NCBI RefSeq assembly: GCF_000372725.1
Contig: NW_005201392.1
Span: forward strand, 785,660-849,659
Reading direction: 5' to 3'
DNA from: Emiliania huxleyi CCMP1516
Taxonomy: Eukaryota
DNA length: 64,000 nt
In this document: positions 42,503 to 55,577 of the stretch, piece by piece
Layout: every line of letters begins with the position of its first letter
How positions within the stretch are numbered: position 1 is the stretch's first letter
Position numbers and translations under genes: made by a program
The notes under the pieces: model-generated
Database searches by the model: none
What the model was told of the DNA's origin: nothing
The model's input: the letters and a program-made list of their open reading frames with translations, nothing else

Positions 42503-45500
42503 ATGGTGGCACCCTTCCGCCGGTTCGCCCGCTCCTACCACTTCGCCAGCCCGGCGTACCACGCGGCCTTCTCGCCGCGGGTCGCTGTCGACACGGCTCC
42601 CATTCGCGCCGCAGCGCTGGCCGCCCACGGCCGCCTCGTCGCCGAGACTTCGCCGAGCGGCGGCCCCGCCTCGTGGCACGCCTCGCCGATGGTGTCGCTG
42701 CTCGGCGGGAAGCGCCTTGAAGGTGGCGAGCGCGTCCTGACGGTCGACGCCTTCGGCGCCACCAACGGCGCGCAGCTGCTCGCCTCGACGGACGAGATGG
42801 AGGCGCGGCGATTGCCCTCTCCCTCCCGCCTCCGCCATCCTCTCCGCTGACTGACACGGTCCCCGTGCGGTTTCTCCCGAAGGCCCTCCTGAGGCAGATC
42901 GAGGGCCCCGCGGCGCCGCGCGCCGACCTCCGGCCCGCCATTCGCCGCCTCGAAGCCCGGCTGCTCGAGCAGGTCCGCCTTCCGAGAGCCTCTGCACCGC
43001 CGCTTCGCCTCCTCCCGGCCGCCCTCTCGCCGCGTCCGCTGCCACCGCCGCCACCAGCACGGCAACGCGTGTGTGCCCAATCCGCTCACTCCTGCCCCTC
43101 CGCCGCCAGCGCGCCGGCGAGATGATTGCGGCGCAGCTGGTCGACTTTGGGAAGCAGGACGGCGTGACCGAGTTTGAGGAGGCAACGAAGAAGCGCCCAG
43201 CAATACACACACAAGCACACACGCGCGGCACGCTCAAGCACACACACACACCGCCCCGCCCCGCACCCTCCCGGCCGTGCGCGTGGATAGCGCGGCGCTT
43301 CGTGCATCTCCCTTCCTCTCCCTCTCTCTCTCTCTCTCCCTCTCCCCCCCGCTCCCTCTCTCATTGCCGCTTCCTTTACCGCTGCCTCCCTCACCGCCGC
43401 CTCCCTCATCGCAGCCTCCCTCAACGCCGACTCCCTCAACGCAGCCTCCCTCTCCGCCGCCTCCCTGTCCGGTATCTCCCTCGCCGTCAGGCGGTCGTCT
43501 CGTTCGACCCGTCGCAGCAGCAGCTCAAGGCTGAGTGGGCCAAGCTCGTCGGCGGGGTGGCGGGGCTCGAGCAGCTCGAGCAGTTCGAGCAGACCGAGGA
43601 GGAGTTCGCCGCCGAGCGGGTGCAGGCCTCTCTCCACCGCACTGTCCGGGTCGAGGCGCCGTACACGGGACGCGGCGAGCTCCTCGGCGCGGGCGCCGCC
43701 GGCGGCGGGCCGCGCTTCCCGCTCGCGCAGCAGTTTTGCACCAAGCTGGTCACGCTCGGCCACATCAAGTCGTCGCGCCCCGACGATGCCGCCTTTGTCG
43801 ACTACTTTGGCGCCTCGCCAAAGTGGCTCCGGGCGGGCGTCTTCGACTGAGGGGGGTGGCGACCCCGCGGCCCAAACCGCCGCCTCAGCCCCGCCGGGGA
43901 GGCAGTCAGTCAAAGCCAAATCAGTGGGGGAGGAGCGGGCACGGCGCAAAACGGGTCGGGGATTCGGCGCGCGCCAGATTTTGCGGGGGCGAAAGGGCGA
44001 ATCCCTGCCCTCCCCTTTTCCACCTCCGTCAGGGTTGTGCTCCCGTGGGGGGTCACGCCTAGACGCTTCGGCCCTCTATATACAACTATTTTATCNNNNN
44101 NNNNNNNNNNNNNNNNNNNNNNNNNNNNNNNNNNNNNNNNNNNNNNNNNNNNNNNNNNNNNNNNNNNNNNNNNNNNNNNNNNNNNNNNNNNNNNNNNNNN
44201 NNNNNNNNNNNNNNNNNNNNNNNNNNNNNNNNNNNNNNNNNNNNNNNNNNNNNNNNNNNNNNNNNNNNNNNNNNNNNNNNNNNNNNNNNNNATCGCGTCG
44301 ACGCAGGCGCCGCGGAGAAGCGAGCGCTGGCGTGGCACGCACGGAGTGTCCTCACCCCTCGACGAGCCCTCACCCCTCACCCCTCGACACGCCCTCCCGG
44401 AGGAAGGAGGGCGGAGCTGAGGAGCTTCTCCTCCCGCCGCCCCGCTGCTGGCCGCTCCTGGCCGCTCTCACACAAACCCCTCCCTCTCCCTCCCTTCCCC
44501 TCGCCGCCAGGGGCCCAACCTGATGGTCGCGCTTAACTAACTAACTAACTAACTAACTAATTGGATTAGGGGCCCAACCTGATGGTCGCTCTCGGACTGC
44601 CTCCTTCGGTGGCGAAGGCGGCGGCCGTCTCAGCGGGGAGATGCCCCGAGATCGCCCGAGATGCCCCGCGATGACCCGAGAGCGGGGGTGAGCAGGCTGC
44701 GGCCCTGTCTGCCACCATCGAGAACTCGGGCCAGTGCACGGCGCTGCGGGTGCTGCTCGCTCCGCAGGCCGAGGCGACGGACGCCGCCGTCGGAGCGATG
44801 CTCGCCGTCGACGCGGCGGCCACCGGAGCCGATGCCGCCTCCTACCTCTCGGCAGGCCAGTTCGCCGGGCTAATCAACTACTAATCAACTACTAATCAAC
44901 TGCTAATTAAGTGCTCACTACCTCTCGGCAGGCCAGTTCGCCGGGCTGCTCGCGCCGGCGCCGGTGGCGGAGGACGGCCGGCCGCCGCGCACGCCGAGCG
45001 GTTACACGGCGGTCACCCGACGCCGGAGGGGGGCTCCTAGGAGGAGCGCTGAAGCTGCGATGCACCTTCCTACAGGCGCACGCGGCGTCGGAGGGTGTCT
45101 CGTACCGTGTCTCGGTCGCATCGCCCCTCATCGCCCCTCATCGCCCCTCTCATCGCCCCTCTCATCGCCCCCATCTCCTGCCCTCTCCCCTCCTCTCCCC
45201 TCATACATGCGCACTCAACACAACAACTTGCACATTTGCATGCAACCACCTTGCACTTCCACGTTCGGCCGCGTGACCTAAACCCGGGGCTTCACGTCCA
45301 CCACCTGATAGGACATGCCGCACGCGGCCACCGTCTCGGTACGGCCGGTTGGCTGCAGATAGGTCAGCGGCGGGAACAGGTACTCCGCCTCGTTTGGAAA
45401 CGCGGACAAGAAGGATACGTTCGGGCCTCGGTCGTAGAAGGAGTCGGTGATCAGCCGCAGCAGCACGTGGTCGGAGGTCATCGTGCGGCTCGCTGAGTAG

Positions 45501-47473
45501 CGCAGTGCGACGCTCAGGTCAGACGTCGTCGACATGGGGGCGAGCTCCGTGCCCCCGTCGGCCATGAAGCTGTCGGGCGCGGCCACGTCCTTCATCCCGC
45601 GGTAGAGGAGGAGCTGCGAGCTGGCGCTCTCGCGGCTGACCTCGGCCTCCACTGAGCGGAGCTTCGTCAGGGCGTCCCGGAGCAGCGCGACCGTCGCGGG
45701 CAGCGGGTGGGGCTCTCCCCGCTCGTACCGCGCCCAGTTTCGGAGGGGGTTGTTGATCGACTCGAAGGCGGCGGTGGTGTACAGCCGCAGGGCGACGACG
45801 TGCGCCTGCTCGAGGTTGGCGAGCCGCGAGTGCTCGTGCGCCACAAAGTCGCGAAGGAGCATGCCGCGTCTCGCCGCGCCGTCGCAGACAGTGCGCGACT
45901 CCAGCACGGCGCCGTTCTCGTCGCAGTCGCGCTTGAGGCCGCCCTGAAAGGTGAGGTCGCTCGAGNNNNNNNNNNNNNNNNNNNNNNNNNNNNNNNNNNN
46001 NNNNNNNNNNNNNNNNNNNNNNNNNNNNNNNNNNNNNNNNNNNNNNNNNNNNNNNNNNNNNNNNNACTGGCGCCAGGTCGTGCTCGACGTGGCGACGCCA
46101 CCCGCCGGCGTCGACATCGCGTCGGACGAGTCGGCAGCACGGACGAGCGTGCATGGCCCGGCCGGCGCGTACACGCGTGCAGTGACGCGTCTGACTCGCG
46201 CCCGTAGGCCGACGCCGTCGGTGCGTGGCTCGTCCGACACCAGCCCATCACTTGCTCCGTCAACGGCGCCGTCGGGCGCGACGCGGCGCCGGCCGTCGCC
46301 GCGGGCTCGCCGCCCGACCACTTTCGGTTCGCGCGGCGCGTGTTCGAGCGGTCGGCGCTCTGCGTCTACTCGGTCGGCGACGCGGACGCGCCCGTGCTCT
46401 CGGCGCAGGCGCGGCCGCAGGACGGCGAGTGCTTCGGCGAGCTGCCGCCGCTCTCGTCGATGGCGGATGTCACGGTCTTCCCGATGGTGGTGCCCTCGGC
46501 GCAAGCAGCCTATTTCTCGCACTACTCGACGGAGCACCTCCGCGCGCTCGGCGCCGCCGCCGCCGCGCCGCCGCCGCCCGCCGCTTCGCCGTCCGCGGCG
46601 CCGTCGAGCGGCGAGGCCGCCAAGCGCGCCGCCGCGGTCGTCGACGCGTTTGTGTCGGCCGCGGGGGCGGCCGAGGCGCGCGGGTACGTGCGGCAGATCG
46701 GCGCATATCTCCTCACGGCGGCGGACGGGCCGCGTCGCGCCTTTGGGCAGCGCACGGCGCTGTATGGCCTGCAGCGGCCGCCGATGGATGGGCGGCGCAC
46801 GGCGCTGCGGGTCGGGCCGGCGGCCACGAGCTTGGACGAGCTGCTCCCGCTCGCGCTGCCGTTCGCGATGACCAACGCGCGAGGCCAGGCGGCCGGCTAA
46901 CTTCTCTTCTCTCTGCTCAGCGCGACTCCTCTCTCTCTCTCCCTTCCTCTCTCTCTCTCTCCCTCCTCTCTCCGCCGCCTCCCTCACCGCCGCCTCCCTC
47001 ACCGCCGCCTCCCTCACCGCCGCCTCCCTCACCGCCGCCTCCCTCACCGCCGCCTCCCTCACCGCCGCCTCCCTCTCCGCCGCCTCCCTCTCCGCCGCCT
47101 CCCTCGCCGTCAGGCGGTCGTCTCGTTCGACCCGTCGCAGCAGCAGCTCAAGGCTGAGTGGGCCAAGCTCGTCGGCGGGGTGGCGGGGCTCGAGCAGCTC
47201 GAGCAGTTCGAGCAGACCGAGGAGGAGTTCGCCGCCGAGCGGGTGCAGGCCTCTCTCCACCGCACTGTCCGGGTCGAGGCGCCGTACACGGGACGCGGCG
47301 AGCTCCTCGGCGCGGGCGCCGCCGGCGGCGGGCCGCGCTTCCCGCTCGCGCAGCAGTTTTGCACCAAGCTGGTCACGCTCGGCCACATCAAGTCGTCGCG
47401 CCCCGACGATGCCGCCTTTGTCGACTACTTTGGCGCCTCGCCAAAGTGGCTCCGGGCGGGCGTCTTCGACTGA
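42503..47473 (+). CDS. Aldehyde-dehydrogenase-fold protein, multi-exon, scrambled by gaps and duplications
   Basis: DFGKQDGVTEFEEA (resembles ALDH E.GK...EV), GPNLMVALG and ENSGQCTALR (resemble GGK.P and N.GQ.C.A with the catalytic Cys). The last exon occurs twice (about 43490-43850 and 47113-47473). Confidence 0.55.
45278..45965 (-). CDS. Second copy of the ADP-ribosyltransferase exon (matches 50544-51231), truncated at a gap
   Basis: Same peptide SSDLTFQGG...EAEYLFPPLTYL...VDVKPRV*, at a constant offset of 5266 nt. Confidence 0.85.
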
Positions 47474-48024: not shown

Positions 48025-50125
48025 CTACACGCTCTCCGTCGATGGAGGCTGGCACTGGATGCGCGGATGTGGGTCCGTGTGCGGCGAGATCTTTAGCGCA
48101 GCGTAGGCGCAGAGGATGAGTGCGTGCATCACCGCGCTGAGCGCGTAGGGCAGAGAGGTCCCGATCCGGGCGCTCCTCGGGTCCGCCCCTATTAGCATGC
48201 CCACACGCGAGTGGCGCGGTGCTCACGCGCCAAGCTCCTCGAGCAAGCGAGGGGAGAGGCCGCGCACCCTCGCCCCCGATCGCGTAGAGCGCGTTGACGC
48301 AGACGATGGGACCAAGGCACTCGCCGAGCGAGAAGAGCACGCGGCTCACGCCTGCAGTCATCCCACAACGGCACGCTCGCTCTCTCCAACGCCATCCCGC
48401 GCCTGCTCTCCACGGGGGCGGCGAGGCGACGTCACCCGTCAGAGCGCCGGTCCCATTGACGGTGTGCATGCGTCCGACCGTCGAGACGCGGTTCTGGTTC
48501 GGGTTCACCGCCAGGCAGAGACCAGGCGTGAGCACCTGGGGGGCAGGTCTGTATGTGAGAGCGCCCAGAGGGCCGCTTCCTAGGCGGTCACCTCCCTCTC
48601 TGGCCCCGCACGCACTCCAATCATCAAGGGGAAGGCGACCGGGTGCCGGTTGATCCACGGCAGGGCGAGGAGTGTGCAGGCGGCCGTCTGCCAGCCGTGC
48701 CCGATGTAGATGGACATGGCAATCGAGTAGCGCGCCACCTAGTCCTTGGGCGGTTGGGTGTGGGTGGGGGCCCAAACTTTGGAGTGCAGGTTTCCCTCCT
48801 GCTTCTGCTACTTGTGACATTCTGCTACTACTTGCGCCACCAGCTTCGGGACGACGTAGACTGCGGTGAAGAAGGTCAGGGCCGAGGAGGCCACCGCGCA
48901 CCTGACCCCGCGTGGCGAGGGTGAGCTATGGCAGCCCTTAAGGCTGCTTGCTGCTAGGCGTGACGAGCCGAATGGGGAGCGTGCTCTAAGCTGCTGGCGT
49001 GCGGTCGCGCACGCGGCGATGACGGGCACTCTGAAGCCGAAGTAGAGCGCGTAGTGGACGGCGGGCAGCGCTCCCTGGATGACCACCGTCCAGCCGCTCG
49101 CAAACGACGTCAGCGCGTGCGAGATGAACTCCTGTGGCGCGGAGACAGGTGGGGCGTCTTCCGCGGCGAGGAGGGTCACAAGGGGAGTGGGTGGAGAGGA
49201 GAGAGGAGAGGAGAGGTAGCGGGGAGGGAGACGAGACGAGACTGAGTCGGAGAGATGATGAGACGAGGCCAGAGCAATAAGAGCGCGCCCGAGTCGCGAG
49301 GGCCCGCCGGATGCCTTCTGGCTTGTTCTTCCGCATCGCCACAATGTTGTCCAGCACGGGCGGAGCAAAGTACACCGGGAGGAGCGCGAGCAACGCGATC
49401 GCTGTGGAGAGGCCCATCACGCCGCCCCAGATGGCAAACGGCTCTCCAAACGGCACCGCGACGGCGGCGCCTCCGAGGGTCAGTCCGCTCAAGATGAAGC
49501 CTCCGAATTTTCCAATGGACGCGACCAGGGCGGGACCCGGCTCCTGGCGGTCGAAAAGGAACACAAAGGCGGGCACGGTGGGGACAGCGAAGCCAGCCAG
49601 CAGGCGGACGGCGAGGAGCGCAGCGACCGCACCGAGCGGAATGCCGTCGATGGAGAAGAAAGCTGTCACCGCAAAAAAGGTTACATTCAAGAGCATCACC
49701 ACTGTCAGCGCCTTGCGGCTGCCGAGTTTCGCGCTCTGGACGCCCCAGAAGAGGTGGCCCGGCATCTTTGCGAAGGACTGCGCCGTCAGGATGGCACCGA
49801 CCCACCGCCGCGCCCACTGTGCGCCCTCGTCTCCGACGATGCCCTGCGACGACGCCCACGCGAGCAAAAAGACGGGGAGCGTCGGCACAATCGAAGCGAG
49901 GCCAAAGAAGTCGGCGAAGACGGCGCAGCCCGGAGCCAAGTACGGCCTGCGGAAGGCTGTCACGATACACCGAGGCGTGGCCGACTCGGGTGGCGGTGGT
50001 GAGGACGGTGCGGCGGTCGACGGCAGTGCGTCGACTGGCGCAGCGGCTGCTGGTGGCAGTGCGTCGACTGGTGCAGCGGCACCAGGAGCTCCAGCGCCAG
50101 CAGTCGGCGCACAAACACCCGCCAT
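48025..50125 (-). CDS. Major facilitator superfamily transporter (multi-exon)
   Basis: TM1 CAVFADFFGLASIVPTLP, motif-A-like FWGVQSAKLGSRKAL, and LLAVRLLAG. Further hydrophobic exons run down to LPYALSAVMHALILCAYAAL...TESV* at 48025. Confidence 0.8.
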
Positions 50126-50229
50126 ATCGGCGATTTGTCACGCCGCATTTGATACCCCGCCCCATGTGTGTGTGCGCGTGTGCGTGCGTGTGCGAGTGTG
50201 TGTGTGGGGGGGGGGGGATCTTCTTCTTC

Positions 50230-50230
<1 letters not shown>

Positions 50231-50305
<75 letters not shown>
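50231..50305. repeat. (TG)n microsatellite upstream of the MFS gene
   Basis: About 37 TG units. Confidence 0.95.
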
Positions 50306-50308
<3 letters not shown>

Positions 50309-50543
50309 TGTGTTGTGTCCGGTCGCGTTCCAACCGTTTGCTTGTTGAGCACTTGAGCACTGGATAGGGTCGATTCCGCATGGTACGGGACCCCTCGATC
50401 GTTTGCTTGTTGTAAAATGTACAACCCTGTCAAGAGTTGACGTGAACCCCCCCCCCCCCCCCCCCCTCATCCACGCGCACTCAACACAACAACTTGCACA
50501 TTTGCATGCAACCACCTTGCACTTCCACGTTCGGCCGCGTGAC

Positions 50544-53205
50544 CTAAACCCGGGGCTTCACGTCCACCACCTGATAGGACATGCCGCACGCGGCCACCGT
50601 CTCGGTACGGCCGGTTGGCTGCAGATAGGTCAGCGGCGGGAACAGGTACTCCGCCTCGTTTGGAAACGCGGACAAGAAGGATACGTTCGGGCCTCGGTCG
50701 TAGAAGGAGTCGGTGATCAGCCGCAGCAGCACGTGGTCGGAGGTCATCGTGCGGCTCGCTGAGTAGCGCAGTGCGACGCTCAGGTCAGACGTCGTCGACA
50801 TGGGGGCGAGCTCCGTGCCCCCGTCGGCCATGAAGCTGTCGGGCGCGGCCACGTCCTTCATCCCGCGGTAGAGGAGGAGCTGCGAGCTGGCGCTCTCGCG
50901 GCTGACCTCGGCCTCCACTGAGCGGAGCTTCGTCAGGGCGTCCCGGAGCAGCGCGACCGTCGCGGGCAGCGGGTGGGGCTCTCCCCGCTCGTACCGCGCC
51001 CAGTTTCGGAGGGGGTTGTTGATCGACTCGAAGGCGGCGGTGGTGTACAGCCGCAGGGCGACGACGTGCGCCTGCTCGAGGTTGGCGAGCCGCGAGTGCT
51101 CGTGCGCCACAAAGTCGCGAAGGAGCATGCCGCGTCTCGCCGCGCCGTCGCAGACAGTGCGCGACTCCAGCACGGCGCCGTTCTCGTCGCAGTCGCGCTT
51201 GAGGCCGCCCTGAAAGGTGAGGTCGCTCGAGCCAGCCTCGGCGTACAGGACGTAGGCGAGGCACTCCTTGTCGACATCCGTCCCAGCTAGGCTCACCTGC
51301 AGGGAGAGGCGACTAGGGTGAGAGAGGGGGAGCGCGAGATTGTGCGGCGATCCGGCGATGGATCACAGTCACCTCGTTCACGATGGCCGCGGTCCCGTCG
51401 ATCCGGCCCTGGTGAACGATGTTCTCTGGCACGCACATGTACGCCTCGACGCCTAGCGCCGCTTGCGCTGGCCGGCCGAAGACGAGCTCGCGCGGCGCCG
51501 AGGCGAAGCGGTCGTAGGAGTCGAGGATGTTGGTCAACGTCACCTCCTCGGCGTTGAAGCGCCCCGACATGCGACTGAACACCTCCGTTATCTCCGACTC
51601 CATGCGATGGAGTTCATCCTTGGGTGCCACGGTGACTGGGCGTTTGCGGCGAAGTGCGAAGTACAAGCACAGCAGGAGAAGGGCGCACGCCCCAACGGCG
51701 CAAATGGCCGATACGACACTCCGGGAAAGAAGACCCTCCCCGATGCTAAATGACGATGGCGTGAATGGCGGGGTCGGGGTCGACGGCGGCAGTGGTGGTG
51801 CTTGCGGCGGCGGGGGCGACGCGTCAAACGGCGGTTCCGCCTCCCCAAAGTTGTAGATCACGCCGCTGCTCTCGCGAGATCCGCCCTCCCAGACCCACGT
51901 GTCGTTGCTGAATTGTGCTACGCGTTTCTCAGAGAAGCCATCTTGGTCGAGCAGGTTGAACAGCTGCACATTCGCGTTGCTCCTGTCGCCCTTTTCGTCG
52001 AACTCCACGCGCCCGGAAAGGCCGTCAAACGACAGGGTCTGCTTGGACTCCCAGAACTGCGTGCCAAACTTCACCGGCAGTGGCCCCGTCGGGGCCACCT
52101 TGCAGGACAGCAGCCCTGCCGCTATGACAGCGTCGTAAGCAAACACACTGCCATCGCGCAGCACTGCACTCGTTTTTGGATTGACGGTACTGAAAAAGTC
52201 GTCGATGATCTGCCAGTCGGCAGGCAGGAACGGGTTGAAGTCTCCAGGCTGAAGCTCCGGCCAGCGCTGGTTTGCGAACTTGGTCCACTGCGGGTTGCCG
52301 TCGGTCGCACCGACCGCCTTGATCTGCAGACTGCCGTTCAGCGCTATCCGCGCCGCCTCGCTCAGTGGCGCGCCGCCGTCGATTTCGAGCGTGGTGCCTC
52401 CCACACTCTCAGTGAACACCCAAGAGGTGCCACGTCTGAGTAGACCAGTGTCTATCGCAGACCTTACAATAAGGCGAATGCTGTATTGGTTGAAAGCAAG
52501 AACAAGCACTGCCTTGGCCCCGCTGCTGCTCAGGCTGTCGACAGCAGAACGGATCGAGTCATCGCGGATCGATGCATCTTCGGAAAACTCTTCGCTGACA
52601 ACTGTCAAGCCGCTGGCCTGGCACGCTGCCTTTGCTGCTGCCTCGTAGGCGCGCCCGTACGTGGTTTGCTCATGTATCACGGCCACGGTCGAGAGCCCGA
52701 GCTCACGCTTCCAAAAGGAGCAGAGGCCCGACGCGGCCGCAACGTCCGAGGGGATGGTCCTCATGAAGCGAGGATAGAGGACGGTATCGGACAGGTCGGC
52801 TGAAGTTGACCCGTATGAGATCTGCGGGATGTCACGAGCACCGGTGGAAGTCGCCGTGGTGGTAGAGACTGTGTCGAGAATAGGACCGATGACGACGTCT
52901 GTGCCAGATAGATCTCCCAGCGATAGGTCCGCCTTGGCAGCTGTGCCGCCGCTGTCGAGCAGCCGGAATTGAAGCTGCTTGTCGCATCCCTTCAAGGACC
53001 CAAGTACGGGCAACGCAGCAGGCTCCCGCGAGTTGAAGTCCGTGACAGCCGTGAGGGCGACTGCAACGATCGCCTGCGCGAACGGGAGAGTGAGCCAGCA
53101 CGCGCCACTGACGGACCAGTCGAAAGCGCAATTATCGGCGGACGCTTTTGCGTCCGACTGCCAGGTGAGGACGGCGACGCTCACGTTCACGGAAGCGAGC
53201 GCCAT
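50544..53205 (-). CDS. Putative single-pass receptor: Venus-flytrap (ANF-receptor/class C GPCR type) ectodomain, TM helix, R-S-E mono-ADP-ribosyltransferase; exons 51373-53205 and 50544-51296
   Basis: VFT motifs VVIGP, IPQISYGSTSADLSD..YPRFMRTIPSD, FAYDAV and FDGLSGRVEFDEKGDR. TM VVSAICAVGACALLLLCLYFAL followed by RRKR. A 76-nt GT-AG intron (51297-51372) joins AIVNE|VSLAG in frame. ART motifs LYRG, PMSTT and EAEYLFPP. About 861 aa; the start codon is uncertain. Confidence 0.85.
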
Positions 53206-53378
53206 GAGGGCAAGGTCACGGTGCCGGCGCGGCACGGCGTGTCTTTGTCACGCCTCGATTGTTTGAAGTCGAATTTTTTGTTTCACTGATGAGCGAGCAC
53301 CACGAAAAAAGGTCAAGGTCGTCCTGAGCCATCCGAGTTTCTTCTGTTCGGGCATGGTCGCCGCGTCAGGCGACACGA

Positions 53379-54367
53379 ATGGCCAAGCTCTCCTCTCGCG
53401 AGGATCGGTGGCACGGCCACAAGCTACTTGGACTGTACGCGCTCCTACACTTCGCGTACCGCTACCACGCCTTTTTTGCCGGCGCAGATGACATGGGCTT
53501 CGCCGACCAGAACGGCTGGAGTTCTGCCGCAAGTCTAGCGCCTCACCTGCTGCTGCAGCTCAGCGGATTGACCTTCTCCATTCCACGCCGTCGCATCGTC
53601 ACGGGCTCACGGATCTGGCCCGAGTACCGCTGGCATGCGCTCGTCTTCACACTCCGCTCGCTGGTTCTCATGGCCATCGCGGTGCGTTATCCGCATGCCG
53701 AAACGTGCCTCCCGCCACTGCTTGTTGTCCTCTGCGCCATGGCGGCGGCCGACATTTCACCGCTTGGTACGCGCGGCGTGGCGAGTCGAGCCGCACGATT
53801 CGCGACCTGGCCGCGCCCGCGGGCGCCCAGTACTTGATGTCGGCGACGCAGTTCCACGCGACGACGGGCTGCTTGCTCACACGTGGCCGCCTGAGCGTGC
53901 AGCTCGTGTCGCTGTGCGTCATCCAGAGCGCCGCCTTTGTGATGACGCTGCAGCGGCGCGGCCTCATCACCCACCGCCAGGACCTGTGCCTTTACGCGGG
54001 TCTCCTGGGGTTTGGTGCGCCCACGTCCACCTCTGCCCCTCGCCTGGCCCTCGCGTCGGTCCACGTCGACCTGCTGTGTGCGGGACTAGGCCTCGCCGTC
54101 GTCCTGGACGACTTCAGCGCACGCGGCGTGCTGCCCGTGGCCTTCACCGTCGCCAACGCCGCGGCGATCGCGCGGCTTGACGGCGGAGCGAACAAGTACA
54201 TCTTGTGGGCGGCGGTCGGCCTGCTGCTGCCCGCGCTGTGCGCGCCTGAGCGCGCTGCGGCGCGAGTGTGGCGCGTGCTCGGCCCCGCCAGCGGCTGCGG
54301 ACTCGTTGCGAGCGCTTGGCGTCGCGGGCACTCCGAACGCAGGTTAGGAGGGGCAAAACCGTTATAG
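53379..54367 (+). CDS. Multi-pass membrane protein of unknown function with an apparent frameshift near 53755
   Basis: Hydrophobic protein-like sequence in ORF 53379-53837 up to MAAADI continues as TAWYARRG...in ORF 53705-54367. No intron is visible at the switch. Confidence 0.6.
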
Positions 54368-54594
54368 ATGTCAGGCGGGTAAGTACATGTATTCATGTGT
54401 ATGTGTGTACGTTTTTGCGAGCAGGGAGGTAATAGGATGAGCTTGCATCCATAAAAAGAAAATTTGAAGGGGCAAGGGCAAGAGGCTTTGATTCTCTCAA
54501 AAGAAAGAAAAACGATCGCGACTCCGCTGTCTGTTCCCCTCCATCTTGGCAGCCGCTCGGGCCTCTCTCCCGCTCCATCCGACAAATGCGCCGC

Positions 54595-55577
54595 ATGCCC
54601 ACTGCGCTCGTGACCGGTGCGTCGCGCGGCCTCGGCCTCGAGTGGTGCAGGCAGCTTTCCGATAAAGGGTGGACGGTCTACGCCGCGTGCCGAGCCGGTC
54701 CGGCCGCTCCCGCACTCGCACCTCTCAACGTCACGCCGGTCATGCTCGACGTGGCCGATCCGGCCTCGGTTGCCGGACTTGCTGCTGCGCTCGAGGGCGT
54801 CGACCTCGACTTGCTCGTGAACAATGCGGGCATCCGGCCAGATGAGTGCGGCCCCGACAAGACGCTCGGCGAGATGGACTATTCCGCTATGGAGGCCACG
54901 AGGAGAGCGGCCGGTAAGCTCTGTCACGGCCCGTTCAAAATCAACATTCTTGCACAGGCCGTGCTCGCAACCAACACGGTCGGGCCGATGCGAGTGCTCT
55001 CCGCTTGCCTGCCGGCGCTCAAGCGGGCGGGCGCGTTCAAAGTGCTCAACGTCAGCTCCGGCCTCGGCTCCTGCTCGCTGGCAGCGCACACCCGCCGCGC
55101 GTTCGGCAACATTGCGGCCACCGACCTCGCATACCGCTCCTCCAAGGCGGCCCTCAACATGGCCACGGCGCTGGCCGCCCTCGAGCTGGGCGAGCCACGC
55201 CCGAGCCACCTCCGCGACACTTCCGAGACGGCCAACTCGCCGGCGTGTGTTGGATGATCAGGCGAGTCGCACCCGCAGTCTTGCGTCGTCGCCTTTGACC
55301 CCGGCTGGGTGGCGACCGACATGGGCCTCCGCGGCGGCAAGGACTCACCGCCGCTCAAGGCCGGGGTTCGCAAGCAGCGACCAGCCTGACGGCACGCACC
55401 GGAGGCCAAACTGAGCCTCTGCCGGCATAGGTGGAGGACGCCGTCCGGCGCAGCATCCAGCGGATGGAGGGCCTCACGCCCGCGGAGACGGGCTCGTACG
55501 TGTCGGGGCCCGGCACGGCGGCGGCGGTGCGGGAGGACGGCTCAATCGGCTATGGCGCGTCGGTGGTCGCGTGGTGA
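54595..55577 (+). CDS. Short-chain dehydrogenase/reductase (C-factor/CsgA-like), multi-exon
   Basis: TGASRGLG, LLVNNAG, NVSSGLGS, catalytic YRSSK, and FDPGWVATDMG. Confidence 0.9.

Follow-up and report, generated by a model that had tools for sequence, protein, structure and literature searches.

The outputs of known catalytic receptors include kinases, cyclases, phosphatases and TIR domains. The natriuretic-peptide receptor guanylyl cyclases and the trypanosome receptor adenylyl cyclases are single-pass proteins in which a Venus-flytrap (VFT)-type ectodomain is followed by a cytoplasmic catalytic domain, and the trypanosome family, like the one considered here, is expanded, with varied ectodomains. 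Venus kinase receptors combine a VFT ectodomain, one transmembrane (TM) helix and an intracellular enzyme; they form dimers, and joining a VFT to a kinase gives a working design (PMC2680970, excerpts).

Here we consider a gene within a 64,000-nucleotide stretch of Emiliania huxleyi CCMP1516 DNA (the window), in which a VFT and a TM helix are followed by an ADP-ribosyltransferase (ART) domain. Its product differs from Venus kinase receptors in having an ART output without a tyrosine kinase, in being algal and in carrying a tail that is exchanged among paralogues, and from the receptor guanylyl and adenylyl cyclases in lacking a cyclase or kinase-homology domain and in having an output predicted to use NAD+. 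The VFT is nearest to mGluR1/5 in the PDB and related algal VFTs occur on 7tm_3 proteins, a likeness to class C GPCRs (mGluR, T1R, CaSR), yet the window protein has one TM helix and an enzyme in place of seven TM helices and a pocket serine is replaced. On the enzyme side the best fold match, N-terminal helical lobe included, is to the vertebrate ecto-ARTs (ARTC; ART2.2, Z 17.2), with which the R-S-ExE motif is shared. Whereas ARTCs are mostly GPI-anchored ecto-enzymes (PMC3102197, in part), the window ART lies C-terminal to a TM helix and an RRKR cluster, has no hydrophobic C-terminus or anchor and is 18% identical. The bacterial R-S-ExE effectors HopU1, XopAI, Tre1, ExoS and Vis have the same fold (Z 13–15, E 1e-7 to 1e-5), but identity is 16–20%, there is no secretion or delivery part, and the window gene is intron-bearing, endogenous and encodes a membrane protein.

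The preliminary description of this DNA knew of no characterised protein with such an architecture, and this held within the literature searched (listings and the starts of abstracts), where we found neither a VFT-TM-ART protein nor any catalytic receptor with an arginine-type ART output. The architecture is likewise not described in the excerpts covered of PMC9503650, PMC3971589, PMC3482391, PMC3102197 and PMC2680970; the supplementary architecture figures of PMC3971589 could bear on algal VFT fusions. The receptor-enzyme design is itself known; the ART output and the exchange of sensors and enzymes appear to be new.

The reading that we favour, at roughly even odds, is that of a receptor whose VFT binds an extracellular small molecule and thereby activates an ART, predicted to be cytoplasmic, that transfers ADP-ribose to arginines. 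By analogy with receptor guanylyl cyclases and Venus kinase receptors, ligand would close the VFT of a dimer, and the TM helix and juxtamembrane segment would reposition the two ART domains, which would then use NAD+ to ADP-ribosylate arginines on nearby cytoplasmic proteins.

Gene structure and membrane placement

Two exons on the minus strand make up the gene, and their spliced frame encodes 861 aa and a stop. Its features are as follows, related proteins and loci being given P and L numbers.

51373..53205, minus strand: exon 1, 611 codons (aa 1–611), with a short leader, VFT, stalk, TM helix, juxtamembrane helix and the first ~40 aa of the ART domain
53191..53205, minus strand: leader, start MALAS, without the L-rich signal core of paralogues; common to L003, L007 and P0132
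51841..53190, minus strand: Venus-flytrap / ANF-receptor domain, about aa 6–455; Pfam PF01094 at aa 77–418, E 7.6e-32
52890-52873, minus strand: VFT pocket motif IGPILD, from the sequence
52821-52801, minus strand: VFT pocket motif ISYGSTS, from the sequence
51766..51834, minus strand: Pro-rich stalk; identity to L004 climbs from ~85% to ~100% over stalk and TM helix
51640..51717, minus strand: predicted TM helix, aa 497–518, then RRKR, aa 519–522; hydropathy peak 2.58
51568..51621, minus strand: predicted juxtamembrane helix, about aa 529–546 (helix 155–172 in the P0002 model; gap-free match)
50547..51495, minus strand: ARTC-fold domain, about aa 571–861, spanning the intron (P0002 model range 197–487 aligned to ART2.2)
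51297..51372, minus strand: intron, 76 nt, phase 0, GT, pyrimidine tract, CAG, inside the ART domain
50544..51296, minus strand: exon 2, aa 612–861 and stop, the bulk of the ART domain; PF01129 match and fold matches
50867-50865, minus strand: R755, catalytic motif
50798-50796, minus strand: S778, catalytic motif
50657-50655, minus strand: E825, catalytic motif
50651-50649, minus strand: E827, catalytic motif

The preliminary description had proposed that a 76-nt GT-AG intron fuses two open reading frames into about 861 aa. As many as 171 GT/GC-AG donor-acceptor pairs in the tested range likewise join both frames, so frame fusion alone is weak and the intron needed independent evidence. An exact 76-nt skip was found in contigs of all eight runs examined, in two sets of four (8 of the 12 listed, from five studies; none is recorded as RNA, and their RNA nature is a guess), and this bears the proposal out. 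In four of the eight the contig extends for no fewer than 31 letters to either side of the intron. Unspliced pieces are also present in two runs (X12 record 10 and X10 record 2). One contig (X1 contig 5) joins the end of the VFT (51869), the stalk and the helix to the splice junction with two differences, and none of the contigs examined covers the window copy from end to end. An intron occupies the corresponding position in each of the three related genomic loci; the one in L006 (1914-1977) is 64 nt long and has a GC donor.

The complete order of leader, VFT, TM helix and ART is present in the 838-aa paralogue P0001, on a contig of 2621 nt. Contigs rich in paralogues can be chimeric, and an assembly chimera is possible for this single contig; the P0001 tail, however, differs from that of the window (85% in the juxtamembrane segment) and is therefore not a copy of a known piece. 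Both VFT-ART and VFT-phospholipase C (PLC) architectures are present in long genomic records, the former in the window and the latter in the 647-kb scaffold of P0126. Two simpler accounts were rejected: that the ART exon is a separate gene, because the ART fold begins in exon 1 and joined contigs exist, and that the fusion arose by chance in one assembly, because it recurs in the independent loci L004, L006 and L007 and the proteins P0001 and P0002.

The domain order proposed earlier, a VFT, a Pro-rich stalk, one hydrophobic helix with RRKR and an ART, is confirmed by Pfam and hydropathy; the ANF_receptor profile was recovered, and every motif quoted at that time is present in the spliced protein. 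The best PDB sequence matches of the VFT are mGluR1/5 (E 6e-11) and T1R3, and together with the Pfam match they identify the ectodomain of the single-pass receptor-enzyme design. Hydropathy gives a single TM peak above 1.9, and Pfam finds no 7tm_3 match in the window protein, so that the seven TM helices of a class C GPCR are not seen. Flanking charges (K/R 1 and D/E 1 before the helix, K/R 5 and D/E 2 after it) predict that the enzyme lies on the positive side. The positive-inside rule and the paralogues with L-rich leaders both support a cytoplasmic ART, in agreement with the receptor placement first suggested, but surface targeting of the window copy is a different matter. An L-rich leader occurs in 15 of 16 listed family proteins and, by inspection, is absent from the window copy and P0132, the window protein starting with MALAS directly ahead of the first VFT strand; with the signal-peptide core missing, surface targeting of this copy is doubtful. 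We infer that type I topology is good for the paralogues with L-rich leaders and doubtful for the window copy, and the clearest full-length type I example is P0001.

The pocket also sets this copy apart. In mGluR1, the Ser of the GPGSSS motif binds the amino-acid carboxylate. Most paralogues keep Ser at the position aligned to that motif, and the window copy, L003, L007 and P0132 have Asp there, a replacement that suggests a different ligand for the Asp-bearing group.

Considering these features, the family might be real and the window copy mis-targeted or decaying, its VFT not exported and without a surface receptor role. The signal core is absent, the pocket motif is altered, a related contig runs unspliced out to 53233 without an upstream ATG, and the nearest relative, L007, is frameshifted and has a VFT dN/dS of about 0.55. 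Nevertheless, the 861-aa frame is open with no loss of the catalytic triad, and four sequences that differ by as much as 30% have the short start in common. The first 17 residues carry no charge and may yet serve as a weak signal, and six ectodomain cysteines are kept, as are three sequons. We judge this account rather improbable. Frameshifts occur in two of the three metagenome VFT-ART loci (L006 in the ART exon, L007 in the VFT), and may reflect sequence error or decay.

The ADP-ribosyltransferase domain and its relatives

Exon 2 matches the ART profile of Pfam (PF01129) with an E of 3.4e-6, above its cut-off. A PDB sequence search with the same exon gave weak matches only (XopAI, E 0.07; Tre1-type, E 0.08), and a single-sequence model of it had a pLDDT of 41.7. 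The fold evidence comes instead from an alignment-based model of the paralogue P0002, whose exon 2 region shares 97.6% identity with that of the window and for which pLDDT was mostly above 90 over residues 210–487. VIA-align placed ART2.2 first (rmsd 3.3 over 210 residues, at the Z score given above), and the 21 chains with Z of at least 8 were all ART-fold or ART-like, the next row having Z 4.6; the top Foldseek matches were HopU1, XopAI, Plx2a, ExoS, VIP2 and Vis. The structural check proposed in the preliminary description thus recovered an ART fold, by way of the paralogue model. Since the fold match begins ~40 residues ahead of the splice junction, the intron interrupts the ART domain.

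In an alignment (A1) of 80 relatives, chosen from the 120 listed of 306 matches with tandem-ART, truncated and some near-duplicate rows left out, the catalytic residues are conserved as R in 80/80, S in 79/80 and the two glutamates in 80/80 and 79/80, with all four in 79/80. The domain therefore has the R-S-E triad of the ARTC class in its ExE variant and, in the model, the fold of that class, and the R-S-ExE assignment made earlier stands. The ExE variant denotes arginine specificity (PMC3102197, in part), from which we infer that the window ART would be arginine-specific. Between the window and L006 the ART exon has a dN of 0.025 and a dS of 0.268, a coding-sequence comparison that shows purifying selection on the ART.

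Exon 2 has matches in 306 longer proteins. Prymnesium parvum, Phaeocystis cordata and Baffinella frigidus are among the sources named, and haptophytes dominate the atlas clusters nearest to the ART. Arginine-specific ARTs have been reported as seemingly lacking in unicellular eukaryotes (PMC3102197, in part), whereas the family found here is large, conserved and centred on haptophytes, and many of its members are membrane-bound, with the catalytic domain predicted to face the cytoplasm. Among the 120 listed relatives, crude hydropathy predicts one TM helix in 49, several in 32 and none in 39, so the ART needs no receptor. No TM helix follows the catalytic Arg in any of the 120, and the ART side is the more positive in 43 of the 49 single-TM proteins. 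The closest relatives of the window ART are P0003 and P0004, each with a single TM helix and an unrelated ectodomain, and four others (P0033, P0070, P0090 and P0108) have an LRR ectodomain before the TM helix. These LRR-TM-ART proteins are the ART counterpart of LRR receptor kinases. Soluble relatives carry ankyrin, WD40, zinc-finger or FHA/WWE domains, and some are tandem double-ART proteins (P0005, P0023, P0073, P0093, P0095, P0102 and P0107).

These counts bear on an inverted topology, in which the helix would serve as a signal anchor and leave the VFT in the cytoplasm, with the ART an ecto-enzyme as in the vertebrate ARTCs. The best fold match is indeed the ecto-enzyme ART2.2, the window copy has no clear signal peptide, and one sequon lies in the ART. 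However, the basic cluster falls right after the helix both here and in those 43 of 49 single-TM relatives, the 39 listed relatives without a TM helix have cytosolic-type domains, and the sister tails on related VFTs (PLC, kinase, phosphodiesterase and TIR) are established cytoplasmic enzymes. We regard an outward-facing ART as highly improbable.

Repeated exchange of sensor and enzyme halves

The VFT of the window protein has a paralogue in E. huxleyi, EMIHUDRAFT_215146, with 70% identity, and belongs to a family in which several outputs are found. PI-PLC follows the VFT and TM helix in P0123-P0126 and in the loci L001:4405-7638, L002:2962-5424, L005:854-4282 and L008:2-4653; all three close VFT-PLC members checked have SHN and TH catalytic-type motifs, and the VFT-TM-PLC proteins are predicted receptor PLCs. 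Single-TM VFT proteins also carry a cyclic-nucleotide phosphodiesterase (P0136), a protein kinase (P0184) or a TIR domain (P0186; PF13676, E 4.7e-5, below cut-off). In P0133-P0135 the tail is HET-like, an atlas lead only (rank 2, score 0.93, near a putative HET cluster), and has no HET or TIR match in Pfam or NCBIfam. Loci with HET-like, TIR, kinase or phosphodiesterase tails after the VFT and TM helix, found as VFT relatives, are L009-L012, L014 and L015, and related algal VFTs are also found on seven-TM (7tm_3) proteins. Some relatives have two or three VFTs in tandem (L016:134-2968, L017:1563-4397 and P0183), and L008/P0129 has an extra small Cys-rich segment, a relative, P0121, having a weak chitin-binding match.

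ART-bearing and PLC-bearing VFTs are intermingled. VFT subtypes about 65–70% apart share ART tails that are 95–100% identical, whilst the VFT of P0001 (ART) is 98% identical to that of L002/P0124 (PLC), that of L006 (ART) 91% identical to that of L005 (PLC) and that of L004 (ART) 84% identical to that of P0126 (PLC). In a tree of 14 VFTs, from which the near-duplicates P0130, P0124 and P0135 and VFTs of unknown output were left out, a single clade of the five ART-bearing VFTs was rejected (AU p 1.7e-12, IQ-TREE). Between the window and L004, dS is 0.50 in the VFT, 0.02 in the TM-juxtamembrane segment and 0 over the 78 available ART codons, and the intron is identical; TM-juxtamembrane dN/dS values for L001 and L002 were disregarded as the sequence there is non-homologous. 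In two pairs the junction of exchange falls inside the TM helix. At the level of sequence, these comparisons show that sensor and enzyme halves have been repeatedly exchanged, at the stalk or inside the helix.

VFT and ART matches occur together in 5 of the 294 proteins examined, all of the close group, and also in the loci L004, L006 and L007; the best 150 matches of P0001 against 1.84 billion representatives include no distant example. Within these sets the join was seen only among close relatives, so it is of recent origin, and it may simply reflect shuffling. It might be that the protein is a membrane-tethered enzyme regulated by something besides its ectodomain, the VFT having been acquired recently by shuffling as a passenger that determines no more than location or abundance. 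The unrelated ectodomains of P0003 and P0004, the narrow distribution of the join and the recency of the swaps are all consistent with this. On the other hand, at least four VFT subtypes have been joined to the ART tail (window/L007, L004, P0001 and L006/P0130), dN lies below dS in the VFT (0.17/0.50 and 0.23/0.67), and the VFT family serves six further output types, and we think a passenger role distinctly unlikely. Taking the missing signal core, the Asp pocket, the frameshifts and the young, narrow join together, the favoured reading of a ligand-controlled receptor is firmer for the family than for the window copy.

Possible roles of the receptor, and the gene neighbourhood

The analogy to receptor guanylyl cyclases and Venus kinase receptors drawn in the preliminary description is strengthened by this family context; ligand binding, ligand control of the enzyme and catalysis are predicted. 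A different use of the same parts would be destruction of NAD+ or toxic ADP-ribosylation in immunity or cell death, with the VFT detecting a metabolite of a pathogen, a grazer or damage and the ART killing or arresting the cell. The outputs of the VFT family include TIR (P0186, below cut-off) and the HET-like domain (the atlas lead), the ART is found fused to LRR, ankyrin and WD40 repeats, diverse sensors sit on a homogenised tail, and ARTs have been recruited several times as eukaryotic immune effectors (PMC9503650, in part). Against this, the PLC, phosphodiesterase, kinase and 7TM tails are modules of everyday signalling, the HET-like tail lacks a HET or TIR match in Pfam and NCBIfam, and the intact ExE favours arginine transfer. 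A role in immunity or cell death is unlikely in our view.

For the signalling receptor, the family would amount to a combinatorial panel in which varied sensors are wired to ART, PLC or other outputs. We put forward a broader proposal tentatively, at somewhat less than even odds: that coccolithophores possess a combinatorial set of catalytic receptors, with VFT sensors recombined at the stalk or membrane helix onto ART or PLC tails; that the ART-tailed receptors form a new class among catalytic receptors; and that, with the LRR-TM-ART and multi-pass relatives, arginine ADP-ribosylation is a main receptor output of haptophytes, in the role that kinases have in plants and animals. Under this proposal, receptors with a common sensor could pair and cross-regulate. 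If ligand control is true, the family offers a testable route for chemical sensing by a bloom-forming alga, and its natural sensor-enzyme exchanges show which transmembrane couplings interchange.

Around the gene lie the following features.

45181..45965, minus strand: further copy of most of exon 2, together with its 3′ flank, coding part identical; adjoins a 100-N gap, 45966-46065
48989-50125, minus strand: weak MFS transporter match (Pfam)
53355-54360, plus strand: divergent gene, first exon without a Pfam match
54436-55254, plus strand: short-chain dehydrogenase (Pfam)

The neighbouring genes have no evident link to the receptor gene. The copy at 45181-45965 is either an assembly duplicate or a tandem paralogue. 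Rfam gave no match at 50150-50560, and within that range, just downstream of the gene, the ~58 nt at 50345-50402 recur between differing flanks in numerous unrelated contigs from each of the four runs of the first set, which indicates an interspersed repeat.
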